From Dictyostelium purpureum (lineage: Eukaryota), in assembly GCF_000190715.1 (NCBI RefSeq), contig NW_003519574.1, positions 1-50,327 of the forward strand: a stretch of 50,327 nt of DNA, written 5' to 3'. The notes under the pieces were generated by a model. The model searched no databases. It worked only from the letters and a program-made list of their open reading frames with translations, and had not been told where the DNA came from. Below, one piece after another: positions 443 through 29,903 of the stretch. The position numbers and the translations under genes were made by a program. Every line of letters begins with the position of its first letter. Position 1 is the first letter of the stretch.

Positions 443-3400
443 ATGACCCCTCAAAATAAAAAAATTAATAGTTTTATTTTTTTTATATTATTTATATATA
501 TTTTTCCTGTTGTAAAATCTAGTACTGATGAACTAGTTTGTTTAGGAAAATTATTAAATAAACTATTTCCAATACCCATTTCAGAAGTAACAACTTTATG
601 TACAGGCGATCCTGGTTATGATTACCTAAATTATGGATTTTCAATAAAAACAACATGTATTGTCGATCTTAACTCTTTGTAAATATTTCAAATTCCAAAA
701 AAAAATAATAAAAAAAAAATAAAAAAAATAAAAAATAAAAAAAATGACTCTAATTTTTTTTTACTTTTTTTTCACATTTTAATTATTAGGAAAATTGCGT
801 CCCATGAAAAAAATAGCATTATAATAACCTATGATGATTTAAAATGTTTTGAAATAGGTTTATATGAAATGTTGGTAGATATAAAGACTCTTTATTAATA
901 ACATTATTATATACTAATTTATTATTATCTTAATATAGACATTTAAGTAATTTATATTTAGATATAGATGCTTTAGGTACCACTGATGACAAAAGAGTAG
1001 CTACTAAAATTTATTTGGATGATTGTACTTTTAAAGATCAAAGAATTTCATCAATCGGAAACTCAATACCAACAGCAACAGAACATTTGAGTATTGCAGT
1101 TACCGATACTTCAAATTTACTTTTTATTCCATTCTCTTCTTTAAAATATTTGAAAATATTGTAAGTAAACCCATATTTCTTTACACTAACCAGATAATAC
1201 CCAAAAAGCATTGTATACTAACATTTTTAAAGTATTCTTGCATATAAAAATATTGAACAATATTTCCCAAAAATAGAAAATGACCTCTCAACTTCAGATG
1301 AAACAAATTTCTATAATGTGTATGTATTTTTATTAAATTTCAATTCTTTATTATTAAATTAGTATTAATATTTTTAATATTATTAGAATAATAGATTCAA
1401 ATGAAATCCCATCATTTTTAAATATGAAAATACAAAATTTGGAATTATCATTAAAAATTTACAATACAATTCCATCTTTTGACAACTTAGATACCCTAGA
1501 AAGTGTCGATTCATTCAATTTTATTTTTAATGGTGAAATAGAATACCCTAATGCCTTAGGTTCACCAAATAATAAAATTAGAGTGTTAGATTTAAAAGGC
1601 TTATTTAGTCCACCTTCACAAGCTTTAACCCTTCCAAGTGATATTGAAGAGTTTACAATTTCCAACTCTCCATCATTTAATAACAAAGGTTTATTCCCAT
1701 TTGCATCACTCTCAAATATTTTAACCAAGATTTCAATTGGAAATCTTGGTTTAACTAAATATCCGATGGATTTAATTCCCCCAACTGTTAAAACTATGTA
1801 TGTGTAGGAATTTATTAAAATGATATATTTTGTAAAAATTTTAATTAATAATCAAATCTTTTTTATAATAGAATTTTATATCAAAATAACATAGGATCTC
1901 CATTACCAGATATAGAAAAGTTTTATAAACTTAGTTCATTTTCTTTAACCAATTCGAAAATGATTGGATCAATTCCAGAGAATTACTGTAAATTAGATTT
2001 TTTACTATTAGAAAATAACAACTTGGAAGGTGAATGGAATCAATGTTTTGCTTGCTATCAAGAACATTACAGTGATTCTTCTTTTAGTGGTAACCCAAAA
2101 CTAATTAAAAATGATTGCAGTATGTATTATTATCAGTAATTTCAAAATTTTTTTTTAATTCTAAAAAAAAATAAACAAATACTAATAATTTTTAATATTA
2201 CAGAACCAGGATCAATTGTACCATATATAACATATAATCAAGATAACTATATTTTAAGTTTAAGAGGAAAAAATCTTGGTATAGATACACCAGTTATTAA
2301 AGAAAATCTTTCAATAAAACTGGAAACTATTGTACCTCAGAGTCATTTTGAAGTTTTTTGGGACCCAAGGGTATATGGAGTTTTACCAAATATTATTAAT
2401 GTTATGCTAGGCAATCATGAATTTATTTTGGCAACCTCGCCATTAGTACCAGAAATATTAAGTATAACGAAATCAGGAAATCAGTTTGTTTTTAAAGGAA
2501 TACAGTTTTCATATGATTTAGATGATATCATAATTAAAATTTCTGGAGTAAAGTGCTCAAATACATACATAGATTTTAATACCCTCAATTGTCAATTTTC
2601 AGCAACGGATCAATTAAAAATAGGTCAAGATATTCCCTCGACTATCCAAAACATCAAACTAACAACCATATCTATGTTTACAGTAAATACAGCTCAAGAT
2701 AAAACAACAATTATTAAAACCTGTAGTTCTTGTAATGAGGGCTCTGGCAATGGTTTATGCTCAAGTACAACTGGTAAATGTATATGTAGCCAATACTATA
2801 CAGGAGAATCCTGTAATTTACCAAATCAATTTTTAACATCAGCTTCATCAGCATTGTCATCGGGCGGTTTAGTTAATTTATATGGTTGGTTTGGATCACC
2901 AAATGAAGGTTTGACAATTACAATTGGTTCTTTAAATTGTCAAATACATTATTATAATACAACTTTTGCAAATTGTACTATTGGTGCAGGATCAGGTACT
3001 AAATCAATAAAGATTATTCAAAACAATCAAGAATGGATTGGTGAAAATATGTTCCACTATACAGAAACAACATATAGATGTCCAAAAGACTGTTCTTTAA
3101 ATGGAGTTGCAAATGGTGAATGCAATAGCTCTTCAGGTCAATGTAAATGTTTTATTGGTTGGGGTGGGTATGACTGTAATTCAAAATCGACAACTGGAGG
3201 TTCGACATCAACTAGTTCGGGATCATCTACACCAACACCAACAAAATCACCAGAAATTGAAATCCCTGAATCAAATACAACCATCAATAATGGTTCAAGT
3301 TCTATTAGCAATCAACAAACAACTTACGAAATATCAATTTTATCACTAATTGAATATGATGTCACTGATGCAATAGTTATTACACATAACCTAACTAACA

Positions 3401-4122
3401 AATGGATCAGCATAGGAGATACTGATAAGAACATTCATAAATTCAATCAAAATATTTCAGAAACATGCAGAATAACATATATTATTGAAGATATCAAAGA
3501 ATCGAGAGATTATGAATTTGCAGGTTTACAATTAACTTTAGAAAAAGATTCAATTAAAATAACAGTAAACATTGAAAACTATCCATTTACAAGTGTATTA
3601 AATAAATTACAACTCAGATTAGAATCTATAGTAGGTGATAATGGTGCAAATATTGAAAATAATCAATGCAACAATAAAGAAACGTCTATCAATAAAGACT
3701 TATTAGATAATAATCAATTATTAAACTATATTACAATTTCAAAAAATGAAAAAGTATTATATGGTAGATTTATAAACAGAGTATTAAGTGATCACAGACA
3801 ATCATTTATTACAACATCATTAATTTCAAATACCACAACAACATCAGCAAATAAAGAATCATTTATTATTGGATTAAATTTACCATTTTTCACAGAATCA
3901 TTAAGCATCGATCCTGATTTTTCAGTACTAGTATCCCCATCGTTCAAGAAATGCAAATCAAATGATCGTGCAAAGTGGGTTTTACCTGTTGCCATTGTTG
4001 TACCTTGTGTTGCTGTTGCCACCATTATAATAATAAGTGCCATTATTTACAAAAAAAATCGTACCACAGTTTTATTGGTTAAAAATAAATTCAAACTAAG
4101 GGCATTACCAAAAAAAGAATAA
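443..4122 (+). CDS. Paralog A of the LRR / IPT-TIG / EGF-like single-pass membrane protein family (multi-exon gene)
   Basis: Exon 1 (443..~678) encodes a signal peptide plus Cys-containing N-domain (MTPQNKKINSFIFFILFIYIFPVVKS...). Approximate exons are ~962..1160, ~1278..1317, ~1395..1797, ~1872..2122 and ~2204..4122, joined by short AT-rich GTAAGT/GTATGT..AG introns. The middle exons encode LRR-like repeats (LxxLxLxxN, '..NNNLEGEW..'). The last exon encodes IPT/TIG-like folds, EGF-like Cys repeats (CSSCNEGSGNGLCSSTTGKCICSQYYTGESC; CPKDCSLNGVANGECNSSSGQCKCFIGWGGYDC), a Ser/Thr-rich stalk, a ~250-aa membrane-proximal domain, a TM helix (WVLPVAIVVPCVAVATIIIISAII) and a short basic tail. Confidence 0.7.
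2821..4060. repeat. ~1.2 kb segment ~98-99% identical at nucleotide level to 6971..8210 (paralog A vs B 3' exons)
   Basis: Direct comparison shows only scattered single-base differences (e.g. gggtgggtatgac vs ggggtggatatgac; aacattgaaaac vs aacatcgacaac), including at synonymous sites. The N-terminal halves of the two genes are much more diverged. Confidence 0.9.
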
Positions 4123-4470
4123 AAGTGATCTTTATATGCCAAACAAAGCCTCAAGAAACTAATAAATAAAAACAAAATAATATTTTTTCATTCCAAAATT
4201 ATTAATTATTATAATAACCATTTGATTTTTTATTAATATCCAAAGAAATTTATAAATAATTAAAATTCTATTCTTGTCGTATTTTTTTATTCTTGTCATA
4301 TTTTTTATTTTTTTATTAAATTTCCAGGTTGGTGAGTCTGGTAACCGCCCACAAAATTTTAATTTTTTTATTTTTTATTTTTTAAAATATAATTTTTGTT
4401 TTTTTAATTATTTTCATTTTTTCTTTGCAAATTATGAATTTTCTCTTTTTTTTTTTATTTTTAACAAATA

Positions 4471-7400
4471 ATGAAATTAAACATTTTTTTATTATTTATT
4501 TTTTTAGTTAATATTAGTTTTGTAAAATCATTACAGGATGAAGATTGCTTAAAAGCATTATTGGCCAAATTATTCAATATAAATGATGTTGAATTTTGTG
4601 GAAACCCAGTTATTACAAGGGACTATTATTATGAAAGTAAATGTTCAGATTCCAATACAAAAATTCTTGAAAAACTGTATGTTTTATTTCTATTTATTTT
4701 ATAAAATTTTATATTAATTTATTTTTATTTTTTTATTTTTTTAAATTTTAGATCTATCAAAGGGAATGTACCCACTCCCAGTAATCCATCCCCTCCATCT
4801 TTAGTATATGGTGATTTAAGCTGCTTTGAAAATATTAATCAATTGTAACTATAATTATAATAATAAATAATCGAAGAAAATTTAAATATTAATTTTTTTT
4901 TTTTTTATAAAATAGAAATTTATCATTAATAGCAATAAAAAAAGATGCACTAGGTGCAGATGATCAAAAAAATGTTGCAAAACAAATTATTTTAACCTCG
5001 TGTATTTTTGATGATGGAATAATTGTATCTGAAGGCTCTATTTTGCCAAAAGGTCAATTCTATTTAGAAATTTTTATAGATTCATTCTCAAACTTTAAAG
5101 AATTACGTTTTAGATCTATTAAATACATAACTTCTTTGTAATTATCTTTAAAAATAATATTTAAGACAATATAAACAAATATTAATATATTTTCTTCACC
5201 ATTTATTTAGGGAAATTAAAATTGTTGAAAATATAAAATTAAATAACTACCCAAAATATATAAATGATTTAGAAGGTTTAGAAACCAATTTTATTTATAT
5301 GTAAGCATTTTCAACATAAAGTTATTTTTTTTAAATTAAAAATATATTTAATTAATATTTCATTTTTAGTAATTTGTATTCAAATGCTGTCCCAAAATTA
5401 ACAGATCTAAAGATATTTAATTTCTATTTAAAGATTATTGGGGATTTATCCTCGGAGTCAATTGATAATTTAGGTACTTTAAATCAAGTTGAACTATTCA
5501 CATTTTCAAATGATAAAGAAATTGAATTTCCCAAACAAATATTTTCACCAAATAATAAATTCAACCAACTATCTCTAGTACCTAAATTTAAACCTCCAAC
5601 AGAATACATAACCTTACCAAAAACAATACTTGTATTTCTATTCATAGCAGAAAATCCAACATTCAATATCAATGGAAAACTTCCATTTATTTTCCCAGAT
5701 AATATGGTTTATTTGTCTTTAAATAACTTAGGTCTTGTTGAATTTCCAATTTTACCAAAAGATATTAATACATTGTATGTATATAATAAATATATTAAAA
5801 AATATTTTATATTAATTTTTTTTTTTGTTTATTTTTAAAAAAAGAATAATTGTTGGTAATAATTTTGTTATAAATGGTCCAAAACCATTACCAGATCTTT
5901 CATCTTATAAAAGTCTGGCACAAGTTCAACTTACTAATACTGGTTTCAGTGGACCAATTCCTGAAAGCTATTGTTTGTTTGTAAACTATTTATCAAATAA
6001 TAATTTAAATGGTAAGTTCACTGTATAAAATAATAATAAAAAATTAACTGTTTTTTATTAAACCAATTACTAATTTAATATTTTTAATAAAGGAAAACTT
6101 CCAATGTGCAAATCTTGTTATTTAAATCCATATTTTGATGACTATAGAAATAATCCTAATTTAGATTATGGAGTTTGTGGTATGTAGAAAATAAAACTAT
6201 TATTATTATATTTTTATTTTTTTAAAAACATTATTATATTTACTAATTATTTTTATTAAAAAGACGAAAGTTCGATCATTCCTAATTTCGATATATCTTT
6301 TGAAAAAGAAATAACTATATATGGAGAAAATATCGGGTTGAGTTTACCCCAAATTTTCAATTATCCAATTGCATTTTCAACTATCAAAGGAAACTCAATG
6401 TTTAAAGGAAAATGGAATGATATGTGGGGCCAAATTCCAGATACTGTAGTAGTTTCTTTATCGCCAAGAAATTTTACATTTAATACAAAAAACTTATTAC
6501 CATCATTAAATAATATTACAAAATCAAATCTCCAATTTATTTTTGAAGGTTCAAACTTTTCATATAACAAAAATGATTTTGAAATTAAAATTGCAAATGA
6601 AATTTGTTTAATTTCATCGATAACATTTAATAAAATCATTTGTAACTTCCCAAATCAAAAAGTATTACCTGTCAAAAATGATGTCCCAACAACTATTAAG
6701 AATACTAAATCTGGAGAATTCATTTCATTTACTATTAATACACTCGAAGATAAAACAACAGTTGCAAAAGAATGCCCAAATCAATGTATTGAGGGTATTT
6801 GTTCAATTAACACTGGTACATGCATATGCAATCCGGGCTATAGTGGTGAAACATGTAGTCCCATACCATGTAAATCAAACTGTGGTACTCAAGAAGGTAG
6901 AGGCGAATGTAATGGTAAAGTAGGTGTATGTGTTTGTAATCTAAAATGGAAAGGTGAGTCTTGTGAAATACCAAGTCAATTTTTAACATCAGCTTCATCA
7001 ACATTGTCATCGGGCGGTTTAGTTAATTTATATGGTTGGTTTGGATCACCAAATGAAGGTTTGACAATTACAATTGGTTCTTTAAATTGTCAAATACATT
7101 ATTATAATACAACTTTTGCAAATTGTACTATTGGTGCAGGATCAGGTACTAAATCAATAAAGATTATTCAAAACAATCAAGAATGGATTGGTGAAAATAT
7201 GTTCCACTATACAGAAACAACATATAGATGTCCAAAAGACTGTTCTTTAAATGGAGTTGCAAATGGTGAATGCAATAGCTCTTCAGGTCAATGTAAATGT
7301 TTTATTGGTTGGGGTGGATATGACTGTAATTCAAAATCGACAACTGGAGGTTCGACATCAACTAGTTCGGGATCATCTACACCAACACCAACAAAATCAC

Positions 7401-8311
7401 CAGAAATTGAAATCCCTGAATCAAATACAACCATCAATAATGGTTCAAGTTCTATTAGTAATCAACAAACAACTTACGAAATATCAATTTTATCACTAAT
7501 TGAATATGATGTCACTGATACAATAGTTATTACACATAACCTAACTAACAAATGGATCAGCATAGGAGATACTGATAAGAATATTCATAAATTCAATCAA
7601 AATATTTCAGAAACATGCAGAATAACATATATTATTGAAGATATCAAAGAATCGAGAGATTATGAATTTGCAGGTTTACAATTAACTTTAGAAAAAGATT
7701 CAATTAAAATAACAGTAAACATCGACAACTATCCATTTACAAGTGCATTAAATAAATTACAACTCAGATTAGAATCTTTAGTAGGTGATAATGGTGCAAA
7801 TTTCGAAAATAATCAATGCAACAATAAAGAAACGTCTATTGATAAAGACTTATTAGATAATAATCAATTATTAAACTATATTACAATTTCAAAAAATGAA
7901 AAAGTATTATATGGTAGATTTATAAACAGAGTATTAAGTGATCACAGACAATCATTTATTACAACATCATTAATTTCAAATACCACAACAACATCAGCAA
8001 ATAAAGAATCATTTATTATTGGATTAAATTTACCATATTTCACAGAATCATTAAGCATCGATCCTGATTTTTCAGTACTAGTATCCCCATCGTTCAAGAA
8101 ATGCAAATCAAATGATCGTGCTAAATGGGTTTTACCTGTTGCCATTGTTGTACCTTGTGTTGCAGTTTCTGCCATTATAATAACAAGTTCTATTTTATTC
8201 AAAAAAAACCGAACAACTCTATTACTAGCCAAAAACAAACTAGTGTCACAATTCAAAACACAAGAACTATATATGCCAAGAGAAGAGGAATTAAAATCAA
8301 ATAATTTGTAA
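4471..8311 (+). CDS. Paralog B of the LRR / IPT-TIG / EGF-like single-pass membrane protein family (multi-exon gene, ~8 exons)
   Basis: Approximate exons are 4471..~4676 (signal peptide MKLNIFLLFIFLVNISFVKS plus Cys N-domain), ~4753..4846, ~4917..5139, ~5210..5300, ~5368..5776, ~5838..6010, ~6092..6178 and ~6262..8311. LRR exons are followed by IPT-like folds, two EGF repeats (CPNQCIEGICSINTGTCICNPGYSGETC...CKSNCGTQEGRGECNGKVGVCVCNLKWKGESC), IPT/TIG, EGF, the membrane-proximal domain, TM (WVLPVAIVVPCVAVSAIIITSSILF) and a tail. The 3' ~1.2 kb is nearly identical to paralog A. Confidence 0.7.
6971..8210. repeat. Second copy of the near-identical 1.2 kb block (see 2821..4060)
   Basis: Same as the first copy. 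The block covers IPT/TIG, EGF, the S/T stalk, the membrane-proximal domain and the start of the TM helix. Identity breaks down in the cytoplasmic tail. Confidence 0.9.
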
Positions 8312-8669
8312 ATAAAAATAAAATTGGGTCTTTATTTTTTTTTTTAAAAATTTTAATGACATACATATAATAAAGAACTCTGCAAAACTAAGGGGTGAAT
8401 AGAAAATGTTATTTCCTAATTTATATTATTTAATTAATTTGAACTCCTATTTTAAATGATCAAACCAAATAAGTAGTTAAAAGAAATTATAGGAAAAATA
8501 TTTAATACCAGAATCAATATCCCAACTTATAAAAAACAATCCTCCATAATATGCTGAATTTATTTAAATAAATAAAATAAATAAACAAATAATACTATTG
8601 TCATAAATTACAAATTCTTTATTTCTTTTTTTTTTTCTTTTTTTTTTTATGTTTATTTTTCTTTATTGT

Positions 8670-9526
8670 TTAAATATTAATTAATAAAATTATTTGAATA
8701 ATAAAAATTAAAATTAAATACCTTGAAATATTATTTTTTAAAGAGTAGGAATTATTATTATTGTTATTGTTGTTTCCAAAATGAGGTTCTGAACCAATAA
8801 AATCTACTCTAAAAGTTAAACCTCTTTTACCGCCAATTATCATTTGAGCTGCTGAATTTAATTGAAATAGTTGTGGGTTTATCATTGTGCAATCTATGAA
8901 ACCAAATGTTGCCTTCTTTACTTGACAAATTTCACCATCTGATGTTATTTTTATATCAGTTGCATTATATGTGAAAAAACGACCTTGAATATATAAATCT
9001 TTGCCACTTTTACGAATACTTTTAAATTCTGGTTTATGATTTTCATCAGTTGCTAAAAAGAAATCCTTATTATGAATCTCTAAAAAGAGTATATCTGGAA
9101 GTGGAACATTAGTTTCTAACCATTTGGATTTAAATTCTTTAGTTACATTATTATACACCCAATTTAATTTTGGTGTATTCGATGTAAAACTTTGATTCCC
9201 TAACCCAATACCATATAGTGTAAATTCTTTTAATGTTGAATCATATTTTAAATTTGGTATAATTAAAACATCTTCATTTTCTGTAATATTTATTTGCTCC
9301 TCACTCTTTGTATTATTATTTTTACTTTTGCTACTATTGCTGTTACTACTTGTATTATCTAAACTATCTAAAAATATAATTTTTAAAATAAATTAATATG
9401 ATGGTTTTTAAAACCATAATAAAAATGATTTTTCATTTTTTTTTTTTTTTTACCCTGGGAATGTATAAATGATATATTTAAAGAAATTATTAAAACTGTT
9501 ATTAAAAAAATATAAAAAACTTTCAT
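8670..9526 (-). CDS. Hypothetical secreted protein (2 exons)
   Basis: The minus-strand ATG at 9526 gives a signal peptide (MKVFYIFLITVLIISLNISFIHSQ). A GTAAAA..TTTTAG intron (~9385..9452) joins in frame to the ORF 8670..9158, with an S/N-rich linker and a C-terminal globular region. The ORF ends in an N-run and a hydrophobic stretch (possible GPI/anchor-like tail). No family recognised. Confidence 0.55.
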
Positions 9527-11145
9527 TATATTATTTTGATTTATTGTTTTTTAGTATTAAGTTTGTTTTTTTTTTTTTGTTTAAATAAATTTTTTTTAAA
9601 TATTATTTTTAAAAAAAAAAATATTAAAATTATTTTATTTTTATTATAATGTTTAATTTAATATTACAATTAAAAAAATAATAAAATAATAATAGTATTA
9701 ATTTTTTACTTAAGTTCTATCCTTGTTTTTTTTTTTTTATTTTATGATTTAAAAATTATTATTTATTATTATTTTTTTTTGGTTAATTCTCTTAATTGTT
9801 ATTATGTTGTTAATTTAACAAATATAAGTTTTTTTTTTTTTTTTTTTGGCGAGAGTGTTGTGTGTGTTTAATAAATAATATTTAAATTGTTCTTCAAAAA
9901 GATTTATTATTATTATTATTATGTATAAAACATTTATATCTATTTACTTTATATATACATGTTTTATCCACACCAATATCCCCCATCAAATTCCTAAAAA
10001 AATAAATTATTATTATTATTATTTTTATTATTTTTTTTTTTAAAAGTGGTGTGTTACTTAAATTTATCAAAATTGCAAATAATACATCACATAAAAATAT
10101 TTATTTAAAATATAAAAATAAATTAGATTATTAACATCACAATCATTCAATCGAAATTAAAAAAAAAATAAAAAAATAAAAATAAACAAATAATATTTAT
10201 TAACCTTTTATATACAGAATTTATTTTTTACAAAATTTTAATATATTTTATGGCAATCATTCACTAATATTAACACATCATAACCACTATTATCATATAA
10301 TTTTTCCATTAAAAAAAAATCATTTTATTTTTATAATCAATAATATTTAAAATAGCTTTTATATCTTTATTTTTTTGATTTCACTAAAATAATAATAACA
10401 ATAATAGTAATAAATCTTATATATGCATATAAAAGTTTAACGAATAATTATGCCCAGTGAAAAAAAAGATTTTTTTTTTTTTTTTGGATTGTGTAAAAAG
10501 ACAAAAATAATTTTTTTTTTTTTATATATTTTAGACAAAAGTTATTTACATAAAATAAGAATCAAAATTGTTTTAAATAAAAGTGATCATCATGATTTTA
10601 AAATGTGTTACATATTTACCTAAATATCTAAGAGGGGTTACAAAAATAATAATATCTTTCAAAATGTGTGATAACATACAATGATAAACATAAACCTTAT
10701 ATAGAGATGTTTCACATAAAAAAAATAAAATTTTCCCCAAAAAAAATTAAAAAAAAATTTAAAAAAAAAAAAAAAAATAAAAAAAAATAATTTTTTTTAT
10801 ATTAAAAATTTAAAAAAAAAAAAAAAAAAAAATAAACACAATCTCTGTTAAAAAAAAAAAAACCCCCACACATTAATACTTTTCAAATTATACAAAACCC
10901 CTATATATATATATTTATTTGTTTATTTGTTTTATATTTTTTATTTTGATTTGTGTTTATTTTAAAAATAATAATATACTTTAGTTAATCAATAATCACA
11001 AGATTTAAACAAAAAATATATAGATCATAAAGATAGAGATTGATTTTATCGACAATAGTAATAACAATAATAGATAAAATAATAACTTTTGTTTATTTAA
11101 AAGAAATTTTATAAAAAAAAACAAAAAAAAAAAACAAAAAAAAAA

Positions 11146-14488: not shown

Positions 14489-14543
<55 letters not shown>

Positions 14544-16373: not shown

Positions 16374-16404
<31 letters not shown>

Positions 16405-16407
16405 AAA

Positions 16408-18548: not shown

Positions 18549-21500
18549 TTAAGCTTTTTCGGCCCCTTCTTTTCCATTTGGCATGTATAATTCACCTTTA
18601 TCTTTTCTTGATAGTGATTTTAAAGAAAATTTATATTTGTCTTTAGCCATTAAAATAGTCATACGATGTTTTCTATATAAATAAGATACAATAATAATAA
18701 GAGCAGCAACTGTAACACATGGAACTACGATGGCAACAGGTAGTACCCAGGCAGCACGGGTCTTTTTACAATCTGAGAAATTTGGAGAAACTAATACAGA
18801 GAAATCTAAAATCGTGTAAAGAAAAAATATTAGAATTTGAGATAGAGTTTCAGTTTATTTTTTTAAATGTTTTGCTTACCTGGATCTATTAAACATTCTT
18901 CTACACAATGAGGAAGTTCAATACCAACAATTAATGTATCACTTGAAGTTGAAACAGCCTTTGTTTTCATAAATGTTGGTCTTCCATCACTTATGGCTCT
19001 ATTAACAAATCTTCCAGTTAAGACCTTTTGGTTTTTAGTGATACTAACATAGTTTAATAATTGATTTTTATCCAATTCATCTGTTGAAAAATTTGTATCT
19101 CCAGAGTTACAATCGTTACCATTTTGATTAACACTAACTTTTGATCTAAATTGAAGTTGAATGGTATTGAAAACACTCTCGTATTGATAGTTTTTAATGG
19201 ACACAGAAATTTTAATTGAGCCCTCTTTAAGTTCTAGTGAAAGGCCTGCAAATTCATAATCTCTATCTTGTTTAACTTCTTCGATGGTATATGTAATAGT
19301 TGATACATTGTTTTCGCCAATATATTGGTAATAAACGTATTTGGTTTCTGTGGTTAGGTTGTTTATAGGGATCCATTTTGAATTTGTTAAATTATATGAT
19401 TTTGTTAAGCTGCCATAAAGATCATATTCTTCGAGATTTGAAATTAATATTTCATATGCTAGTTTATCATCGTTGATAATTGCAGAGCCATCATTAATAG
19501 TGGTATTAGTATTGGTTTGTTTGTTTTTACAATCAAAACCAGACCAACCTTCGTTACATGTGCATAAGCCTGTAGCTGTGTTACATTTACCATTTGATCC
19601 ACAGTCATTTGAGCATTTCATACTTCCAGAATAGTGGAATTTATCTGTACCAGTCCATACAATACCATTTTGTGTAATTGAAATGTCATGGGTTCCTTCG
19701 CCTGGGGGAGCTGTGCATACAATGGTTTTGTTATTAACTTCTTTTATTGGGGCTTTAATTCCTTTAATTAATATCATAAGGGTATCATGGATTTCGCCGA
19801 ACCAACCGATGATGGTTACATCTCCACCTTGTATTGGTGGTGAGGATATAGAGGTTGCATAAATTGAGGCAAAGCCACAATTAGGAGTATCATATAGCGG
19901 TATACAGGCACAAATACCTGTAACATTGTTGCAACTACCTTGACCTAAAGAAATACTGCAATTTGAAGTGCATTCTTTGTAGGTTATACTACAATCACCC
20001 GATTGCCAATTTGAAGTACAGTGACATTGACCTATATCTGTGTAGCATAAGCCACCATTTAGACATGTTTTTTGGCAATAGGTAACATCTTGACTTAAAG
20101 CACTACTAGAGTCAAATGTAATTTGAGAAGAAAGATCCAGAACTTTAATAACTACAGGAACATTGGCGCCGGTTGGGAAAACTTCAGCGGAAGAGCACTC
20201 TATTGAATCAAATTTAGCCAATGAGACCACACAGTCAATATCAGAACCAACAGTAACTTTTATTTCACTTGGGTTATATGAAAAGAATTCACCATTAATT
20301 GTTAAACCTTTATTATTACTATTTTTTGTTATAGTTTTGGCAAATGGATTGGTTGGTTTAGTTGCAACTTTATAGATATCATTATCAAATGAAAAAGAAA
20401 AATAGCTTGGAATAGAGTCTTGGTTCCATTGAGCTGTAAAAACTGAAGAGTATTTAACTACCTTAAAGTCTATTGATCCTGTAGTACCTGATAAAATGTA
20501 TGTTGCTGTTGGATTTTTAAAACCTAAATTTTGACCTGATAAAGTTAATAATTTATTTGAATCATAACTAAGCTTTGGATAAATTAAACCTTAAAATTAA
20601 AAAAATAAAATTTATTAATAAAAATAAAAATTGTGAATAAATAAAAAATTTTAAATACATACCACATCCAGTGGCTTTAGAGCCATCTAAAGTTTGAGTA
20701 ATATCAGAAATGCCACTAAATGTGTCCATCAAATTACTATATAGTGATCTTTGGTAACACAAGAAACAGTCTGGTAATGGAGCTTTTAATTCTAAGTTTT
20801 CACCCAATTTTAATGATAGAGCATTTAATTGGCAGAATGATTGGGGAACAGTGCCTTCAAGGATATTATTATTTAATATTAAATCGGTTAACTGTGTTGA
20901 GCTAATATCTGGTAAAGTACCAGATATTTGATTATTATTTAAGTCCCTAAATTAATTTAATTTTTAATGATTGTTAATAAATAATATAAATAATAATAGT
21001 ATAATTTATTAATAGTTACAAATATGTTAATCTCAAAGATGCATCCATGGGTGGTAAACTAACAATTTTAACTTTTGGGAGTACTCTGACAAAAAAAAAG
21101 TAAAGTTAATTAATGAATTATAGTATAATTTTAAAATTGACCATAAATAATTACAATTTTTTCAAAGAGGGTGGAATAATGCTGAATGGGATGGATCCTT
21201 GAAAGCTAAATGTTTCACTCGCATCAAAAATTGAGAGTGATGTAAGTTTGAGATTTTCTGTAAGTTCAATTAATGAAGTTGGTGCTTTTAATTGTGCCCA
21301 AATATTACTATATATAAATATTAAAAAAAAAAAAATTAGTTTTTTCAAATAACAAAATCATCAATTACAACTTACATCTCTGTGGTGCTAGTTAGTTTGG
21401 TTAGTTCGATTGGATATGTAAGGCCAGTATTAATATCAAATGAAAGTGACCTAATTTTAATAAAAAAATAAAAATAAGTAAGTTGTTTCTCACATAGTTT

Positions 21501-22621
21501 AGAGTTTATATACTACAAACATTTTATTAACATTATTAAATGTTGATATGTTAGAGAGAGATGGTAAATCAAATCCATTAATATAATCTAAAGATCTAAA
21601 AATTTAAAATTAGTATTTTTTTTTTTTTTTTTTTTTTAATTTTTTTTTTTTTTTCATACAATGAATTAATGGTTACAAAATTAAACGAAGGTGTTTCTCC
21701 AATTGATGATGAGCTAAATAAAAGGAGTTATGTGGTTAGTATAATAAAAATTTAGGTTTTTTTTTTTTTATATTATAATTACAATGAGTCTAAAGAAATT
21801 GGACTTGTAAGATCATTGTTATATTTTACATGTTTAGTGATTGTGGGTGTATCTGAAAAAGAAAAAGAACTATAAGAAAGGATTAGTATCAATTTAAAAC
21901 TTTATATTAAGAAAATAAAACTTACAATGTTTTAATATTTTTTAAAGATGATAATGGGAGTTTTGAAATAGAGTAATCTGGGGAATCAGTATTAACAACG
22001 ATAGAGAATTTATTTGTTGGGGATGGAATAGCTGGAAGTTTATCAAAATTTCTTAATCTGCAGTTTTCAACATTTCTGTAATAAAAATGATAAATATTAG
22101 TTTCATTTTATATGGTAAATTTCTTTTATTGGTTATACATACATAATTGGAGAGTAGCCAGTATCAGTAAGGTCATTTCCGAAAAGTGTGTAGTTGGCCA
22201 ATAAACTAGTAAAAGAAATTGATGTCAAATGTTTAAAATTCTTAAAATAGCTATAATCTAAATTAATTGTAGAGACAGTTTCTTGTCCCCTTACTGTCAT
22301 TGTGGATGCATAGTATTCCCCTCCGATAGATATACATTCGAAATCTGAAGAGGAACAAAAATCCCAAAAAGTATTAACTCCTACAGTTAGCGTTTGGAAT
22401 CTGGTTGAAAATTCTGATTCAACTAAAACAACCTTTAACAATTTTTCTACACGATTGTCTAAAATTAAGAATAAAAATGGTTAGTATTTTAAAAATTAAA
22501 ATTTTTTTTTTCTTTTTTATAAAACTATTTACATTCATCTATTTGTAATATTGATTGAGAGTTTGAAATATATACAAAATTTGATATTACAAGTAATATA
22601 AAAAAATGAAGAATTTTCATT
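18549..22621 (-). CDS. Paralog C of the LRR / IPT-TIG / EGF-like single-pass membrane protein family (many exons)
   Basis: The minus-strand ATG at ~22621 gives a signal peptide (MKILHFFILLVISNFVYISNSQS) and a Cys N-domain exon (22133..22441). A series of ~70-100 nt LRR exons lies between ~21300 and 22100. The large exon 18863..20230 carries IPT/TIG, EGF repeats and the membrane-proximal domain. A 62-nt intron (18801..18862) joins the final exon encoding DFSVLVSPNFSDCKKTRAAWVLPVAIVVPCVTVAALIIIVSYLY-RKHR..ELYMPNGKEGAEKA*, with the stop at 18549. Confidence 0.65.
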
Positions 22622-23052: not shown

Positions 23053-26000
23053 TTAATACATATTTTCCAAAGTTACAACCCTTTTTTTTCTTTTTTCGAA
23101 AAATAAATTAATTTTATGTCTTTTATATACATATATTATACCAATAATATTGGCGACTACAATGACTGTACAGGGTAAAACGATTGCTACTGGTAAAATC
23201 CAACTGGTTTGTTCTTCATATTTTTTTGTGCCTAAAAATTTTATACGATCTTTACTATACCATTCTATACCATTTTGGGTAATATTTACATCTTGGAAAC
23301 CTGTTTCTGGACCAATAGTACAATTTATAAATGAATCATTGAATTTGTTGAGTGTGCAATTTTGATTTCCAATTGAAATTGTTAAATTTTCGTGAATAAA
23401 ACCAAACCAACCATCTATTATAATATCACCACCTAATACTGTTGGAGTTGAAAAACGAGAGGCATAATGATTTGGAATTGAGCAATCTTCAGTGGTATAA
23501 AATTCATTACAATCACAGGTACCAGTTTCATTTTTGCAAATACCATTGGAAGGACCACTACAATCACCTGGACATAAAAAGTATGGGATTGAACAATCTA
23601 CACCTTGATAATCATCACCACAATCACATTGACCAATTGATGATATGCAAATCTTTTGATTCATACATGGCTTTTCACAGGGAATTAAAGTTTGTTCGGT
23701 TTCTGATGTTGAGTTAATCGTAATTTGAGTTGAAAGGTCGTCTACTTTAACGATTACTACCATATTTTCATTATTATCTAAATCTTGGCTAATTTGACAT
23801 TCGATGGCATCAAATGATGAGCTTAAAATTTGACAATCGACTTTAGCTCCATCATTATTGGTAAAAGTAATTTGAACTACCGATGGTAAATAATATTCAA
23901 AGTATAAACCCATAAACAAAAATGTATTATCGGTTCTTAATACTGTTTCTACAGTTGGATTTTGTTTCGATGTTGCAACTTTATATTGTTCACTATCAAA
24001 ACCAATTGAGAAATATCCTGGTTTCCAGTCGCTTGTCCATTGTGTTTTAAATAGGGTTGAATATTTGACTGCATTAAATTGAATTGTCTTATCTGAGCCG
24101 TTTTGATCTATATATGCTGCTGTTGGATTGATAAAACCTAAATTATTTCCGGATAATGTGAACTCTTTGTTATTTGAATTATAATCTAATGTTGGTTGAA
24201 TTTTTCCTAAATTATAAAAAATTATTAATAACAATTACCAATAAATAAGAATTTGTAAAATATTATTTAATAAACCTACCACAAGCTGTTACATCAATGG
24301 AAGCAGAGTTTACCCAATTAATAATATTTGTTGCACCATCAAAGGCTGTTTTATAATAACTTCCCAATGTTCTCTTATAGCATCTAAAGCAATCTGGTAA
24401 GGGTGTTACTAAACCAGTATTACCTGATAGATCTAATGTCTGAATATTTAATTGACAAAATGATTCTGGGACTGATGTTAAACCATTATTAATTAATTTT
24501 AAATCTACAATATTTGTTGAGCTAATATCTGGTGAAATTGTAATTCCAATTGATGCTAATGATCTACATATATAAAATAAAATATTAATATTAATGGAGA
24601 TAAATTAATAAATTTGTTTTAAAAAATCAAAGAATAGCTACAAATAAGTTAGTGTTGATGGTAAGTTTTTAAATGGTATTTTTTTGTTAAAATTAAAAGT
24701 TGCTGAATTTGAATCAATTGATAACTTTTGTAATTTTGGGATACCAGCTAAATCAATTTCTTCAGTTGGTACATTAAAACTTCCTTTTATTGTTCTAAAT
24801 AGAAAAAAAGTAAATAGGTAAATATATAACTAATAGTTTTTTATAATTATAATAAACTTACAATTGTGTAGTTTTATCTAAATTAAAAGTTGGGAAATCG
24901 ATATTACCAAAAGCTACATCTAAATTACTGTTAAAAAAAATAATTAATAATAAATCCACTTTATAAAGAGTGTATATCTAAACAATATCTACATTAATTC
25001 TGATCCTCCTAATGTGTTTAAATTTGTAAGTGAGGCTGAATCAAAATTTCCAATTAAATTCATGTACCTATTTTATATTATTATAAGAAAATTAATATTT
25101 AATTAATTATTTCATCATTTAAAAGGAATTTATAACTTACAAATCTTTAATTGCATATGATTCAAACGATGGAACATTGGATGTTGAAATATAGCTAAAT
25201 ATTCATAATTAGTTTTTTTTTTTTTTTTTTTTTTTAATTTGTAAAACAATTTTTTAAAAACCTACAATGAATTCATATATTTTATATTTGATGGGACTAT
25301 ATTATTTTTATATTGTGGTGCTGTGTTTGAGTAAAGGTTTACATATTTACTAAGGTTTAAAAATAATTAATATTTTTTAAAATAAAATCTAAATAAAATT
25401 AAATTAAATTAACCATACAAATCCAATATGTTTTCAAGAATACTAAAATTGATAATAGAAGGTTGAGGATCTAAACTATTTAATGTTAAATTTGAAGTTG
25501 GTGAAGGAAGAGTTGCAATGTCGCTCATTCTACAATTAATTAAATTTCTAAATATAAAAATATAAATTAATAAATTGTAATTATATTATTATTTAAATTT
25601 AACATACAATGCTTTGGTAACACCGGTTTTAGTTGGATCAGATTTATCTCCAAAAGAATCTTTAGTAAACCTCATACCATAATTTGAACCATTTAATTCC
25701 AGGTATGAAAGTTTAAATGCTTTGAAACTACTGTAATCTAAATCGGCTGATTGTGATGCTGCTGTAATATATAATGTGTCAATAGTATCACCAATACATG
25801 TAACTTTTAAAAATGCTTTATTTTGAGAACAAATATCTGCTGGTTCATTTTGGTAAATACTTAAATAATCTGTTCCTGATAAAACTGAACCTAAAATATT
25901 TTTTAATGAAATGTCTATGTGATTAAATAAAAATAAAAAAATTAATTTATAAATTTTAAATTTTGATTAAAAAAAAATAAATAAATTAAATACACACATT

Positions 26001-26107
26001 GCGGGTCAGAGGCTGGCAAAAGTGCGCTTATATAAAACTCCTTATTATTACTAATTAAAATAATAATAAATAAAAAATAAAAAATATTATTGGTTTTTAA
26101 TTTCATA
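23053..26107 (-). CDS. Paralog D (short subtype, lacking the membrane-proximal domain) of the LRR / IPT-TIG / EGF-like membrane protein family
   Basis: The ATG at ~26107 (-) gives MKLKTNNIFYFLFIIILISNNKEFYISALLPASDPQCV, followed by a GT intron. Multiple short LRR exons lie between 24250 and 25900. The terminal exon 23053..24234 carries two IPT-like folds, EGF repeats (CEKPCMNQKICISSIGQCDCGDDYQGVDC; CPGDCSGPSNGICKNETGTCDCNEFYTTEDC), IPT/TIG, a TM helix (WILPVAIVLPCTVIVVANIIGIIYVY) and a basic tail. Confidence 0.65.
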
Positions 26108-26669: not shown

Positions 26670-29600
26670 CTATATTATATTTTTTGAAAGATTCTTTAAA
26701 GAGAATTTACTTTTTTTTGATGGATCATCTTTTTGTTTTTTATAAATAAAGAAACCCAAACCACCAACAATTGCAGCAGCACCAATCGGTACAACGATAG
26801 CAACAGGCAACACCCATGATTTTTTATTTGAGCCCTCTTCATAGTATTGCTCTGATTCTTCTAGTCCGCTATTACTACTTTCATTTTTAACACCACTGCT
26901 ACTATTACTGTTGTTATTGCTACTATTTTCTTTACTACTTTGACTTCCTGAATAAATACTTTTATATTTGAATAGGTTATTATTTGACCGAGTTATATTA
27001 TTTTGTGTTATATGTATTGGTTTAGTTCCTTCTTCGCCTGGGCCTATAGTACATGTTATTTTTGAGTTTGTTACATTTTTAATTTCACAATAATTGTCTA
27101 TATCAACTAAAATTGTTAAGTTTTCATGTACATCACCAAACCAACCAGTTATTATAACTTCGCCACCAGTGGTCAATGGAGATGATATGAATTGAGCATA
27201 GTGATTGGGTTTAGAACAATCATAATAAGTGTATAGAGGGTCACATGAGCATTCTCCTTTGACAGAATCGCACCAGCCTTTACTTGAAGAATAACTACAA
27301 TTGTTTGGACATGGTTTTAAAGGTAAACTACAATCTATAGATTGCCAATCTTCGGTACATCGGCATTCTGAGGTAGATGTTAAACAAATACCTCCATTTT
27401 GGCAACTAGTTGGGCAATAGTTAACATTTTGGGTGGTATCTCTATTTGAATCAAAGGTAATTTGGGTAGAAAGTTGGTCGACTTTAACAATTATTATTAG
27501 ATTTTCTTCTTTTGGTATGGCTTGTATACTTTCATCCACTTTACATAAAATAGTTTCAAAAGTGGATGTTAAAACTTGACAGTAAATATTTGGTACATGT
27601 TCATTGCCGCCCAAAGAGATACTAATAAGGGTGGTATCATAGTTAAAGAATGATCCATTGAATGTAAATGTATTTGATGATTTAGTAACACTTTTTACTA
27701 TAGGCTTGTAGTTTCCAGTTGAAACTGTATAGTCATCACCATCGAAATTAAATACCATTGTTGGTGGTAATGGTCCACTTTTATCCCATTGAGCGGTAAA
27801 TAGAGATGAGTATTTAACTGGTTTAAAAGTAATAGACGAATTTAAATTTGAATCTGAATATATACCAATTGGGTTTGTAAATCCTAAATTTTGACCTGAT
27901 AAAGTTATAGTTTTTGAAGTTGAGCTATAATTAATAGTTGGAAAAATTAATCCTAAAATAGAATGGTATTAGTTATTTTATTTAAGTTGTTTTTTTAAAA
28001 ACTTAAACATACCACATGACTTAGTTGGTAAATTATCTAAATAGTTTATAATTTCAGAAATTCCAGCAAAAGATGTTTTGTAGTAATTATTTAATGTTCT
28101 TCTATAGCATTCAAAACAGTTTGGTAAAGGTAATGCTAATCCAACATTATTTGCTAGATTGAGAGTTTGAATATTTAGTGAGCAGAATGATGTTGGTACA
28201 GTTCCGGTAAATTTATTATTATTTAAAACTAAATCTATCAAATTTCCTTCGCTAATATTTGGTAATGGTCCTGTAATTGAGTTATAACCAATATCTCTAA
28301 AATTTTAAATTAATATTCATTGTATAAAATAAAATGAAAAATAGTTTACTTACAAAAAAATGATGGAGTTTAAAATTGTAGGGAATATAGTTAAACCAAC
28401 GTTTTCTAAAATTCTATAAATATAAAATATTAATATTTTTTTTTCTTTTTTTTTTTTTTTTTTAACTTACAATTGTTTTAAAGAGGTTGGGTAGTTTGAA
28501 AATGGTACTTCACCATTATAGTTAAAAATATTATCATTAGATTTTATATTTAACTTAATTAAATTTAAACTACTTGATAGATCCATCTTATTATTAATTT
28601 TATTAAATTTACCTTTTATTTCCCTATATATTTCTTTAAAAGTCAGTATTTAAAACAACATTAAAAAAAACATTAAATTAAACTTACACATTATTAATAT
28701 TATTCAATGATGTTAATTGAGCAGGAAATTCAATTGGGTCGATAGGGAATTCTAGGGTACTATAAAATTTAATTTAGTATTTTTTTTTTTTTTAAAATAT
28801 TATATTGAAATACTTACAATGTTTTAACATTTGAAATAGTTTGTATATTTGATAATGTAGTTTTATCAAAACCTGTAAATAAAGTTATTTTTCTATAAAT
28901 TAAATATTAAAATTTAGATTAATAGGAAAGATAAAAATTTATTGAATAAATATATTTACAAATCGTTTATGGTTGTTCTGGAAAAAGTGGGAATACTCTT
29001 AAGTACTGAATAGCTTTAATAAAAATAAACTATTAATATTAAAATTTAGTTTATATATTTATTTAATAAATATGATACATACAATGAATTGAAAGCTAAG
29101 TTTAAATTTTTAGAAAGTAAATCATTATTATATGTTGGTATATAAGTATTTATTGTTCCATTGAATAAATAGGTGCTGTAGTAAAAAATGAAATAAAAAT
29201 TTAATTATTTATGATTTAAAATTAAAATTTAAAATAAAAACTTACAAGTCTTTAATATTTTTAAAAAATGAAAAATTAATAATTTCAATAGTTTCTGTAT
29301 CTTTATTATTTAGTGTGAGTTTATTTGTCGGTAAAGGTAGTATGCTTGCTGCACTAAATGAAGTGTCTAAAGTAATTCCATTTAAATATCTAAAAAAAAA
29401 AAAATTAAAATTCTATTATTAAAAATAAAATAATGAAACTACTTACAATTCTTTACTAATTCCTTTATTTGATAGAGAATTTCCCTCATCACCGAAATCA
29501 CTGAAATCGTATTTACAATCATTTGCCCTAAAGAAATCTAAAGAGGTAAAATTTTTTAAATCGGAATAATAAAACTTTGTTTTTGATTCACAACTTAATG

Positions 29601-29903
29601 TAACTTTAGAAAGAGTTGTCCCAATACATATAATATTTGGTTTATATTTATCATTACAAAAATCAATATAGCCGTTGGTCAAAGGATACAAGCTTTCAAA
29701 AGTTTTATACGAATACATTCCTTTCAATAATTCAGATAGGGTGTTATCTATATAATAATCAAAAAAATAAAGTTATATTTAAAATTTATAGTAGTTATTG
29801 ATAGAATCTATAAATTATTTTATATTTACAATCTATATCATTTAATTTATCTGCAGCCAAAACCAATGTTATATATATAAATATAAAAAAAATATTTTTT
29901 TTC
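26670..29903 (-). CDS. Paralog E (short subtype with an S/N-rich stalk) of the LRR / IPT-TIG / EGF-like membrane protein family
   Basis: The ATG at ~29903 (-) gives MKKNIFFIFIYITLVLAADKLNDIDC, followed by an intron. The exon 29443..29727 carries the Cys N-domain. LRR exons lie between 27980 and 29400 (e.g. 27978..28241 '..LNLANNVGLALPLPNCFECYRR..'). The terminal exon 26670..27758 carries IPT-like folds, EGF repeats, IPT/TIG, an S/N-rich stalk, a TM helix (WVLPVAIVVPIGAAAIVGGLGFFIY) and a KKQKDDPSKKSKF tail. Confidence 0.65.

Follow-up and report, generated by a model that had tools for sequence, protein, structure and literature searches.

A cluster of predicted ComC-family surface proteins in Dictyostelium purpureum with divergent repeat heads and a partly homogenised stalk

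The analysed window, which is a complete scaffold of Dictyostelium purpureum (50,327 bp), contains five intact multi-exon genes (A to E) and a truncated relative (F) between positions 443 and 29905. Spliced models were built with a purpose-made GT-AG/codon-usage dynamic programme, which, applied to several D. discoideum genes, recovered proteins of the annotated length. Genes A (443-4122; 7 exons, 1064 aa) and B (4471-8311; 8 exons, 1105 aa) lie on the forward strand, while C (18549-22620; 12 exons, 1104 aa), D (23053-26106; 10 exons, 798 aa), and E (26670-29905; 11 exons, 864 aa) lie on the reverse strand; all five were modelled as ComC-like paralogues. The orientation of two arms converging on the middle agrees with a preliminary description of this DNA, and the end coordinate given there, 29903, was essentially right (the ATG of gene E occupies 29905-29903). 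The deposited protein DICPUDRAFT_155266 is 100% identical to residues 107-1064 of model A, and DICPUDRAFT_21469 equals the 3' part of gene C. Genes A to E are homologous to one another over their whole length; their N-terminal halves alone match pairwise at BLASTP E-values of 3e-11 to 4e-64 (4e-64 for D and E). The full alignment contains 81 invariant columns, and the cysteine framework, a GWFG motif, and the transmembrane (TM) motif are invariant throughout. BLASTP of the family members places the two arms in two clades, and tandem duplication gave rise to these clades.

Searches with Pfam HMMs bore out the LRR, IPT/TIG, EGF, and single-pass assignment made earlier from the letters alone, together with the order of the domains. 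All five proteins consist of a signal peptide, a Cys-capped LRR region, two IPT-like beta-sandwiches, EGFs, TIG, a TM helix, and a short tail (signal peptides, N-glycosylation, and the GPI signal mentioned below were read by eye and from sequon counts rather than with dedicated predictors). In gene A a single EGF precedes TIG, which is followed by another EGF, ComC_SSD, the TM helix, and a 24-aa tail; gene B has the same architecture but two EGFs ahead of TIG, and gene C carries the full ComC domain set. Gene D is devoid of the third EGF and SSD, and in gene E a Ser/Asn-rich linker takes their place. The additional membrane-proximal domain noticed previously in A, B, and C and missing from D and E is about 220 aa long and was identified as the ComC supersandwich (ComC_SSD, PF22933; E 6e-50 to 9e-59). 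It scores 170 bits in A (E 6e-50), 171 bits in B (E 3.5e-50), and 199 bits in C against a cut-off of 24, and occupies 18792-19516 on the reverse strand in gene C, with equivalents at 3271-3930 in A and 7421-8080 in B; the third EGF beside it is likewise extra in these three genes. PF22933 was not found in D, E, or F by the Pfam search, so these three would be SSD-less derivatives.

The remaining modules were recognised to various degrees. N-terminal LRR_ComC (PF24141, cut-off 27) scores 65 bits in C and 74 bits in E, with no direct match in A, B, or D, in which the region is nonetheless homologous to that of C and E by the BLASTP comparison of N-terminal halves. Beta-sand_ComC_2nd (PF24143, cut-off 27) reaches 29.2 bits in C and 27.4 bits in D, and Beta-sand_ComC_1st (PF24142) was matched by C alone, at 16 bits, below cut-off; both sandwiches, situated between the LRR region and the EGFs, align through in all five genes. 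TIG scores 34 bits in C, 26.8 bits in E, and 20.2 bits in D, exceeding the curated cut-off in C and E, and EGF_2 or EGF_Teneurin exceed theirs in A, B, and C (EGF_2 31 bits in C; EGF_Teneurin 28.5 bits in B). The motif W[VI]LPVAIV[VL]P at the start of the TM helix, pointed out previously, is present in five of the five genes: as WVLPVAIVVP at 18720-18749 (reverse strand) in gene C, and family-wide at the equivalent positions 3976-4005 (A), 8126-8155 (B), 23173-23202 (D), and 26787-26816 (E). Of the 174 proteins retrieved, many of them fragments, 58 contain a relaxed version. The cytoplasmic tails are basic, 24-42 aa long, and without a catalytic domain; an ELYMP motif closes the tail of B and is also present in that of C, while gene A has lost this end through an earlier stop codon.

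Since the extra domain is the ComC supersandwich and the rest of the modules form the set curated by Pfam for ComC, these comparisons show genes A to E to be, on sequence grounds, paralogues of the known gene comC. The family is thus not an unnamed one, but already defined by the Pfam entries LRR_ComC, Beta-sand_ComC_1st and 2nd, and ComC_SSD. An exhaustive HMMER search retrieved 141 cluster representatives (clusters at 50% identity) at E<1e-30, and all 20 of the higher-ranking matches checked by name came from Dictyostelium species. ComC, a single-pass surface protein rich in EGFs, is required for normal aggregation and for communication between cells; the comC mutant shows aberrant aggregation and streaming and forms spores in chimeras with the wild type, though not by itself (PMC4931340 supplement; PMC2873529). 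It is the only family member with a described mutant phenotype. In D. discoideum comC is DDB_G0271692, and its D. purpureum orthologue is DPU_G0062190 (DICPUDRAFT_39367, 1513 aa), with which we equated the protein P0014, since both have this length and P0014 contains every domain of the ComC set. P0014 is encoded on a different, 43-kb scaffold, and so the window genes are paralogues. The module order of ComC (signal peptide, LRR_ComC, two sandwiches, EGFs, TIG, EGF, ComC_SSD, TM, short tail) is that of the window genes, and gene C is colinear with P0014, with 38% identity over the C-terminal 478 aa (E 7e-90) and a match in the N-terminal half at E 2e-20. That one of the window genes is the comC orthologue itself was considered and rejected: they encode 798-1105 aa with one or two EGFs before TIG, compared with about 1500 aa and about 14 EGFs in ComC. 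The SSD-less D and E and the two-sandwich fragment F also differ from ComC.

Gene F (8670-9526, reverse strand; 2 exons, 256 aa) lies between the two arms, in what had been described as a housekeeping core; that label needs amending to accommodate a sixth, truncated family member. In its product, a signal peptide is followed by the two beta-sandwiches of ComC type and a run of Asn, and the C-terminus is hydrophobic and resembles a GPI-anchor signal. Its residues 59-207 match the sandwich region of A to E at BLASTP E-values of 1e-10 to 3e-5, and Beta-sand_ComC_2nd is hit at 22 bits (Pfam E 2e-4), below cut-off. The reading frame is open and the intron intact, and gene F is predicted to be a relative cut down to a small protein, either secreted or of GPI type.

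The two clades differ in the structure of their LRR exons. The arrangement of one LRR per exon, attributed earlier to the whole family, is found in C, D, and E; in A and B the central LRR units are fused in one exon (1387-1797 in A, 411 nt; 5370-5774 in B, 405 nt; both forward strand). The LRR exons of C, D, and E measure 54, 66-75, and 60-66 nt, with one LRR each, 84-93 nt, and 153 nt, with two LRRs, and all are flanked by phase-2 introns. In gene C the array extends over 20663-22075 on the reverse strand (exons of 150, 87, 54, 75, 75, 153, 66, and 284 nt), and its introns, all in phase 2, interrupt the repeat at its first hydrophobic residue; equivalent arrays on the same strand occupy 24280-25529 in D and 28013-29389 in E. 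A and B have four introns fewer than C and E across the LRR stretch, and they also have none at the place just past SSD where gene C has one. Gene D is one 60-66-nt LRR exon short of C and E, and the phase-2 pattern recurs in D. discoideum DDB_G0286417. The proposal that this exon structure eases repeat shuffling is upheld by the uniform phase of the LRR introns and by the difference of exactly one LRR exon between D and C/E, which show that LRR units have come and gone as symmetric phase-2 exons.

Divergence of the N-terminal parts is graded, with identities of 14-37% in the cap, 22-42% in the LRR region, 35-46% in TIG, and about 50% in SSD. A divergent N-terminus and a conserved C-terminus, as described previously, hold family-wide as a gradient, but the sharp contrast between A and B stems mainly from gene conversion. 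The tract covers TIG, EGF, a Ser/Thr linker, SSD, and TM (2802-4089 in A and 6952-8239 in B, forward strand) and aligns over 1288 bp (1.29 kb) without gaps at 96.6% identity. Differences are few in its interior (about 14 differing codons between 2851 and 3970) and clustered at both ends, and its 5' edge, near 2820, is sharp. The synonymous divergence between A and B is 0.03-0.07 within the tract and 1.0-1.8 upstream, a more than 20-fold step, and dN/dS in the shared block is 0.23. The sharply conserved C-terminus of A and B thus reflects recent sequence exchange and not N-terminal acceleration alone. The step in dS shows that conversion has homogenised the stalk from TIG to TM between the neighbours, while the heads remained old and divergent.

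The same mosaic is present in D. discoideum. On chromosome 4 of strain AX4, three tandem ComC_SSD genes around DDB_G0283853 form the subfamily nearest to A and B (44-52% identity), with the same 8-exon structure and fused LRR exon (411/417 nt there); D. cf. discoideum has a counterpart of this cluster. The paralogues are homogenised over the 3' 1.4 kb or so, from near the EGF/TIG boundary, with 88-90% identity there vs 65% or less upstream, which makes the conversion older than that of A and B (96.6%). All three genes are on the same strand, members of the C/D/E type are absent, and the flanking genes (a cysteine protease and an rRNA dimethylase) differ from those in the window; the cluster is therefore not syntenic with it.

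It is this sister cluster, not the window genes, that provides the evidence for rapid evolution, so that the earlier suggestion of a rapidly evolving family is supported only by proxy. Between D. discoideum and D. cf. discoideum, whose DNA differs by about 14% over a whole locus, dN is 0.125 in the LRR region, 0.100 in the sandwiches and EGF, and 0.040 from TIG to TM, compared with 0.009 in the flanking genes. The cluster has thus changed 4-14 times faster than its neighbours at non-synonymous sites, and the LRR head the fastest. Nevertheless, no pooled region reaches a dN/dS of 1 (range 0.25-0.62, with 0.25 in the stalk; 0.10 in neighbouring genes), and the sole single-gene block above 1, the sandwich and EGF part of the first D. 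discoideum gene (1.32), is too small for significance.

The raised ratios could also mean that most copies became non-functional or redundant after tandem duplication and that their divergence reflects relaxed constraint. The truncation of F, the loss of the terminal ELYMP from A and of a domain from D and E, and the partial or missing deposited annotation for several members would fit such decay. We find it highly improbable: the reading frames of the five long genes stay open over 7-12 exons, every intron is bounded by GT..AG, the cysteine framework, GWFG, and the TM motif are unchanged, the stalk dN/dS of 0.23-0.25 is well below 1, and even F retains its signal peptide, intact intron, and open frame. 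With intact reading frames, regular introns, and a dN/dS of 0.23 in the block shared by A and B, genes A to E look functional.

An AlphaFold2 model had a mean pLDDT of 74, with about 85 for the two Ig-like sandwiches; it was built from a 7-sequence alignment and reached a pTM of 0.39, which makes inter-domain geometry unreliable. Foldseek matched the sandwiches to the IPT regions of plexin A and Met (probability 1.0) and the extra domain to galactose-mutarotase-like supersandwiches. The identity of the plexin/Met IPT stalks and the GLMP luminal domain to the family is 8-21%, a resemblance at fold level only. Plexins and Met have a Sema/PSI head and a kinase or GAP domain, and membership of this Sema-PSI-IPT group was rejected on the grounds of purely structural matches and the absence of Sema, PSI, GAP, and kinase domains in Pfam searches.

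IPT-type domains also recall the Tiger (tgr) proteins, e.g., tgrB1/tgrC1, which like the window genes encode clustered, fast-evolving single-pass surface proteins of dictyostelids. By this analogy, polymorphic heads of neighbouring paralogues would bind one another between cells and thereby settle the choice of co-aggregating strains. Rescue of the comC mutant in chimeras places ComC in intercellular signalling, and the protein products of two paralogues, DDB_G0289863 and DDB_G0286417, differ by 6-10% between genomes labelled D. discoideum, although these figures come without a control from housekeeping genes and the strains could represent cryptic species. To our knowledge, Tgr proteins have no LRR head, EGFs, or supersandwich. 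Membership of the Tiger family, which needs a repeated IPT/TIG/Ig-like (E-set) ectodomain, was rejected for the window proteins, which combine one TIG match each with LRR, EGF, and SSD. The tgrB1/C1 pair is defined by extreme polymorphism and ligand-receptor pairing, whereas the window family is known here from the genes of one D. purpureum genome, and the dN/dS below 1 also speaks against such allorecognition, which we judge very unlikely. Tgr ectodomains are arrays of IPT/Ig/E-set repeats, and D. purpureum has 26 tgr genes of its own (PMC3188802).

The combination of an LRR ectodomain, a single TM helix, and a short kinase-less tail in tandem clusters is also that of plant receptor-like proteins (RLPs), such as those of the tomato Cf-4/Cf-9 loci. 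In these plant clusters, variation lies in the repeats far from the membrane, the part next to the membrane is conserved, and paralogues exchange sequence. The window proteins might accordingly act as pattern-recognition or phagocytic receptors for bacteria, with an LRR head that, like plant RLPs or the ectodomains of animal TLRs, binds microbial surface molecules and owes its fast evolution to an arms race against prey and pathogens, not to cell-cell recognition. A variable head, a conserved stalk, and sequence exchange are typical of such loci; the LRR and sandwich regions have the highest non-synonymous rates in the sister cluster, and the SSD fold is common to carbohydrate-binding and carbohydrate-processing modules. 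Plant LRR receptor-like proteins or kinases made up nine of ten database matches for full-length C, but these matches, with E-values between 1e-7 and 5e-4, span just 4-19% of the query and are due to generic LRR words, so that the search detected no common ancestry with plant RLPs beyond generic LRR. Plant RLPs are also devoid of the IPT, EGF, or supersandwich stalk. A Toll-like or plant RLP-type receptor proper was rejected (LRR_8 15-19 bits and LRR_1 14-19 bits, below cut-off; no TIR or kinase), the overall topology being RLP-like. The developmental cell-communication phenotype of ComC, the sole characterised member, the lack of TIR or any other immune signalling domain, and a dN/dS below 1 in each pooled region make a bacterial receptor rather unlikely. 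D. discoideum encodes more than 150 LRR proteins, the roles of which in pattern recognition are undetermined (PMC5758549).

We therefore favour, with a probability of about 0.6, the reading of positions 443-29905 as a cluster of six ComC-family paralogues, surface receptors that evolve by duplication, exon change, and conversion. The full-length members are predicted to be glycosylated type I membrane proteins with a Cys-capped, irregular LRR solenoid as the likely ligand-binding head and a rigid stalk of two IPT-like beta-sandwiches, one or two EGFs, and TIG. To this A, B, and C would add an EGF and the membrane-proximal galactose-mutarotase-like supersandwich, ahead of the TM helix starting with WVLPVAIVVP. 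The head may bind a ligand presented by another cell or by the matrix, and the signal may be relayed by partner proteins recruited via the conserved TM/juxtamembrane segment and, in B and C, possibly also via the terminal (D/E)LYMP motif. A function for the family would be transferred by analogy from one distant paralogue (23-38% identity, about 14 EGFs vs 2-3). One function common to all six genes is unlikely, because D and E are without SSD and F is without nearly everything.

A bolder view, which we regard as improbable, is that ComC-like clusters constitute a second, unrecognised diversifying surface-recognition system of group-4 dictyostelids, directed at self/non-self, species, or bacteria, in which new specificities would arise as phase-2 LRR exons are shuffled in an old, divergent head, and the TIG-EGF-supersandwich-TM stalk would be kept uniform by repeated conversion. 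A uniform stalk would let every head variant couple to the same signalling partner, a logic like that of plant Cf/RLP loci that would have arisen independently in Amoebozoa.

The cluster is a well-characterised case of a known family rather than a system of a new kind. Few genes have been placed, as comC has, upstream of the machinery for adhesion and allorecognition in Dictyostelium development, and yet the large paralogue family of ComC is annotated merely as hypothetical or EGF-like domain-containing. The locus yields clean gene models for six members and documents an SSD-less sub-clade and symmetric phase-2 LRR exons that vary in copy number, and its mosaic of diverging heads and homogenised stalks recurs in two species. 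Should diversifying selection on the heads be demonstrated in wild isolates, the family would become a candidate for recognition functions beyond tgrB1/C1, such as bacterial sensing, for which we know of no LRR receptor in amoebae, or the strong kin preference of D. purpureum.

The window is a complete scaffold of the Dictyostelium purpureum genome and shows the 18%–35% G+C and the short AT-rich GT..AG introns usual for a dictyostelid. Exons were assembled by a small dynamic programme that combined codon log-odds, trained on long ORFs within the window, with obligatory GT/AG borders, a score for GTAAGT-type donors and the AT content of introns. The five genes encoding LRR/IPT-TIG/EGF single-pass surface proteins were resolved as A (443–4122, 7 exons, 1064 aa) and B (4471–8311, 8 exons, 1105 aa) on the forward strand, and C (18549–22620, 12 exons, 1104 aa), D (23053–26106, 10 exons, 798 aa) and E (26670–29905, 11 exons, 864 aa) on the reverse strand, which confirms the converging layout of the preliminary description. 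The models are supported by the deposited protein DICPUDRAFT_155266, which is 100% identical to model A from residue 107 to the end, and by several D. discoideum genes, whose annotated lengths the same programme recovered. Together with the partial DICPUDRAFT_21469, this protein is identical to portions of the window; a literature search found no published mention of the specific gene IDs. Only 443 bp (1–443) separate gene A from the scaffold's left end, so the cluster may extend past the assembled sequence.

The five proteins can be aligned over their full length with 81 invariant columns, which take in the Cys framework, the GWFG motif of the TIG domain and the W-LPVAIV-P motif at the start of the TM helix, and even their N-terminal halves alone gave significant BLASTP matches for all pairs (E 3e-11 to 4e-64). 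The family and its conserved TM entry, as previously reported, are thus real and well above chance. The LRR, TIG and EGF assignments also hold in profile searches. Matches above the curated Pfam cut-offs were obtained for LRR_ComC in C and E, Beta-sand_ComC_2nd in C and D, TIG in C and E (0.7 bits too low in B and D) and EGF_2 or EGF_Teneurin in A, B and C. The extra membrane-proximal domain of about 250 aa noticed in A, B and C proved to be the ComC supersandwich, ComC_SSD (E 6e-50 to 9e-59), which is absent from D and E together with the third EGF. All five proteins carry 9–15 N-glycosylation sequons, 22–34 Cys residues in the ectodomain and cytoplasmic tails of 24–42 aa without any catalytic domain. 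The domain architecture and the folds can be taken as shown; structure prediction covered contiguous exon sequence on the membrane side of the LRR head, the part farthest from the membrane.

What the preliminary description overlooked is that this family is already defined, by the ComC domain set of Pfam. The D. discoideum comC gene (DDB_G0271692, 1501 aa) has a recorded D. purpureum orthologue, DPU_G0062190, of 1513 aa (PMC4931340 supplement), which we identify as DICPUDRAFT_39367, a 1513-aa protein encoded on another, 43-kb scaffold. Its modules follow the order LRR_ComC, sandwich 1, sandwich 2, a long EGF array, TIG, EGF, ComC_SSD and TM, and gene C is colinear with it in both the C-terminal (E 7e-90) and the N-terminal half (E 2e-20). 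It follows that the window genes are paralogues of ComC with a short EGF part, and that ComC itself is encoded elsewhere. When the large exon of C was used as a query, exhaustive HMMER searching of 1.84 billion representatives returned 616 matches at E ≤ 1e-3, including 141 at E < 1e-30. All 20 of the higher-ranking matches looked up by name belong to group-4 Dictyostelium species and are labelled just hypothetical or EGF-like, and ten weaker ones are proteins of 1500–3900 aa from Cavenderia, Heterostelium, Tieghemostelium and Synstelium, with 25%–31% identity chiefly across the SSD region. A relaxed TM-entry motif, W[VIL][LIV]P[VIL][AVSG][IVL][VIL][VILA], was present in 58 of the 174 retrieved proteins, many of the others being fragments. 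The word-index protein search with full-length C gave one weak Dictyostelium match and plant LRR receptors, the index being swamped by LRR words; with the large exons it found just three proteins for C and no match for E.

The genes have duplicated into two clades, and these are the two arms, as BLASTP scores reach 119–202 bits within an arm versus 53–86 bits between arms. The idea that one arm arose recently by inverted duplication of the other was rejected, because DNA likeness between the arms is confined to patches of 123–349 bp with 67%–71% identity, and because the arms are two old clades of unlike intron content. Introns differ in the LRR region. The central LRR exons of C, D and E measure 54, 66–75 and 60–66 nt (one LRR each), 84–93 nt, and 153 nt (two LRRs), and all introns of this region are in phase 2, each falling within the codon for the repeat's first hydrophobic residue. 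The one-repeat-per-exon structure proposed for all five genes therefore applies to C, D and E but not to A and B, in which the same stretch is a single exon of 411 and 405 nt, respectively, with four introns fewer than in C and E. The LRRs have changed at the exon level: D lacks precisely the 60–66-nt exon found in C and E, i.e., one whole repeat. The phase-2 pattern also occurs in D. discoideum DDB_G0286417, with different exon fusions.

The preliminary description contrasted diverged N-terminal with conserved C-terminal parts. Pairwise identity indeed rises in grades, from 14%–37% in the cap and 22%–42% in the LRRs through 20%–55% in the sandwiches and 35%–46% in the TIG domain to about 50% in the SSD of A, B and C. 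In A and B, however, the conserved C-terminal part is an exchanged tract. A gapless block of 1288 bp (2802–4089 in A, 6952–8239 in B) is 96.6% identical, with few mismatches inside and crowding at both ends; its 5′ edge is sharp, at about 2820, where the last EGF meets the TIG domain, and BLASTN found no match between A and B outside the block. The synonymous divergence is 1.0–1.8 in codons 1–622 and 0.03–0.07 in codons 623–1022. Such a step, more than 20-fold, cannot be produced by selection on the protein, so gene conversion or a chimeric crossover must recently have swapped the 3′ module (TIG, EGF, linker, SSD and TM) between two genes that are themselves old. Positive selection on the head alone was rejected as the source of the A/B contrast, since synonymous divergence itself leaps at one point. 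Inside the block dN/dS is 0.23. Pseudogenisation of cluster members is unlikely, as the frames are intact, the structural residues are invariant and the stalk, the part from TIG to TM, is under purifying selection. A (D/E)[LF]YMP motif lies near the C-terminus of B and C, and of a few family members in D. discoideum; a relic of it (…CTTTATATGCCAAAC…) follows directly after the stop codon of A (4120–4170, compared with 8240–8311 in B). A has therefore lost its cytoplasmic (D/E)LYMP motif, either to an early stop codon or through a small indel.

Homogenisation of the stalk is found in a second species. The nearest relatives of A and B (44%–52% identity) are three ComC_SSD genes that stand in tandem around DDB_G0283853 on chromosome 4 of D. 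discoideum AX4, which share with them the 8-exon structure, the fused LRR exon (411/417 nt) and a 3′ stretch of roughly 1.4 kb that is 88%–90% identical among the paralogues, compared with at most 65% upstream. This stretch begins in the EGF just ahead of the TIG domain. Within this locus (1,090,851–1,112,810), the deposited models at 8209–9852 (394 aa, the LRR half, without a Pfam match) and 10001–11960 (DDB_G0283853, 628 aa, the sandwich-to-TM half) look like parts of a single ComC-like gene divided by annotation; its counterpart in D. cf. discoideum is divided elsewhere, into 173 and 855 aa.

The AX4 locus and its syntenic D. cf. discoideum counterpart served as a proxy for the evolutionary rate of the D. 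purpureum cluster, with flanking genes as internal controls. Pooled over two full-length ComC-like genes, dN was 0.125 in the LRRs (95% bootstrap interval 0.108–0.148; dN/dS 0.47), 0.100 in the sandwiches and EGFs (dN/dS 0.62) and 0.040 from TIG to TM (dN/dS 0.25), compared with 0.009 (dN/dS 0.10) in the flanking cysteine protease and rRNA dimethylase. The non-synonymous rate is thus 4–14 times that of the neighbours and highest at the membrane-distal end. By this proxy the proposed rapid evolution of the head is borne out, but dN/dS stays below 1 in all pooled regions, and single windows exceeding 1 (2.09 and 1.42 in D. discoideum g1) were not accepted as positive selection, since synonymous changes in them are very few. 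For DDB_G0289863 and DDB_G0286417, the proteins differ by 6%–10% among genomes labelled D. discoideum, which is suggestive, although this comparison has no control and may involve cryptic species.

The genes between the arms had been described as a housekeeping core. They include a cyclin of the PHO80 type containing long Asn runs (13564–14988, forward strand), a multi-pass membrane protein that weakly matches DUF5009 and one gene of unknown identity, but also a truncated sixth family member. This gene, F (8670–9526, reverse strand, 2 exons, 256 aa), encodes a signal peptide, a region with homology to the two ComC beta-sandwiches (E 1e-10 to 3e-5 versus A–E), a run of Asn residues and a hydrophobic C-terminal end which, read by eye, resembles a GPI-anchor signal. 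Beyond the cluster, two neighbouring ORFs at 34175–40882 (reverse strand) probably form a single large PARP gene. Its downstream ORF (34175–39601) encodes VIT, vWA and PARP catalytic domains (vault-PARP-like) as well as a 14-3-3-like region, some seven YSPTSPS heptads as in the RNA polymerase II CTD (21-bp repeat, 36179–36328) and, in a 129-bp repeat (34820–35122), a stretch resembling the acidic tail of ribosomal P proteins; the upstream ORF (39821–40882) has a weak PARP regulatory-domain match. An ordinary tsg101/Vps23 homologue (UEV and Vps23 core) lies at 42038–43195 (reverse strand). No tRNA genes were found within the window.

The A–E proteins would be glycosylated type I proteins of the cell surface, acting as receptors or in adhesion, with a ligand bound by the LRR head and signalling via partners recruited by the invariant TM/juxtamembrane segment, as tails without a catalytic domain would require. 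Mutants in comC show aberrant aggregation and streaming and form spores only in chimeras with the wild type (PMC4931340 supplement; PMC2873529), and by analogy with ComC the cluster genes may act in cell–cell communication. The main alternative is the recognition of bacterial patterns, with which the RLP-like topology, the likeness of the SSD to carbohydrate modules and the fast evolution of the head are consistent; it would also match an acknowledged gap, as the pattern-recognition status of the LRR proteins in D. discoideum, more than 150 in number, is unknown (PMC5758549). Allorecognition of the tgr type is possible, but the cluster proteins do not show the Tiger architecture when tested for it, and D. 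purpureum already has 26 tgr genes (PMC3188802). What is new here are further members of the already defined ComC family, and the points worth pursuing are the mosaic in which the head diverges while the stalk is homogenised, and the phase-2 LRR exons.
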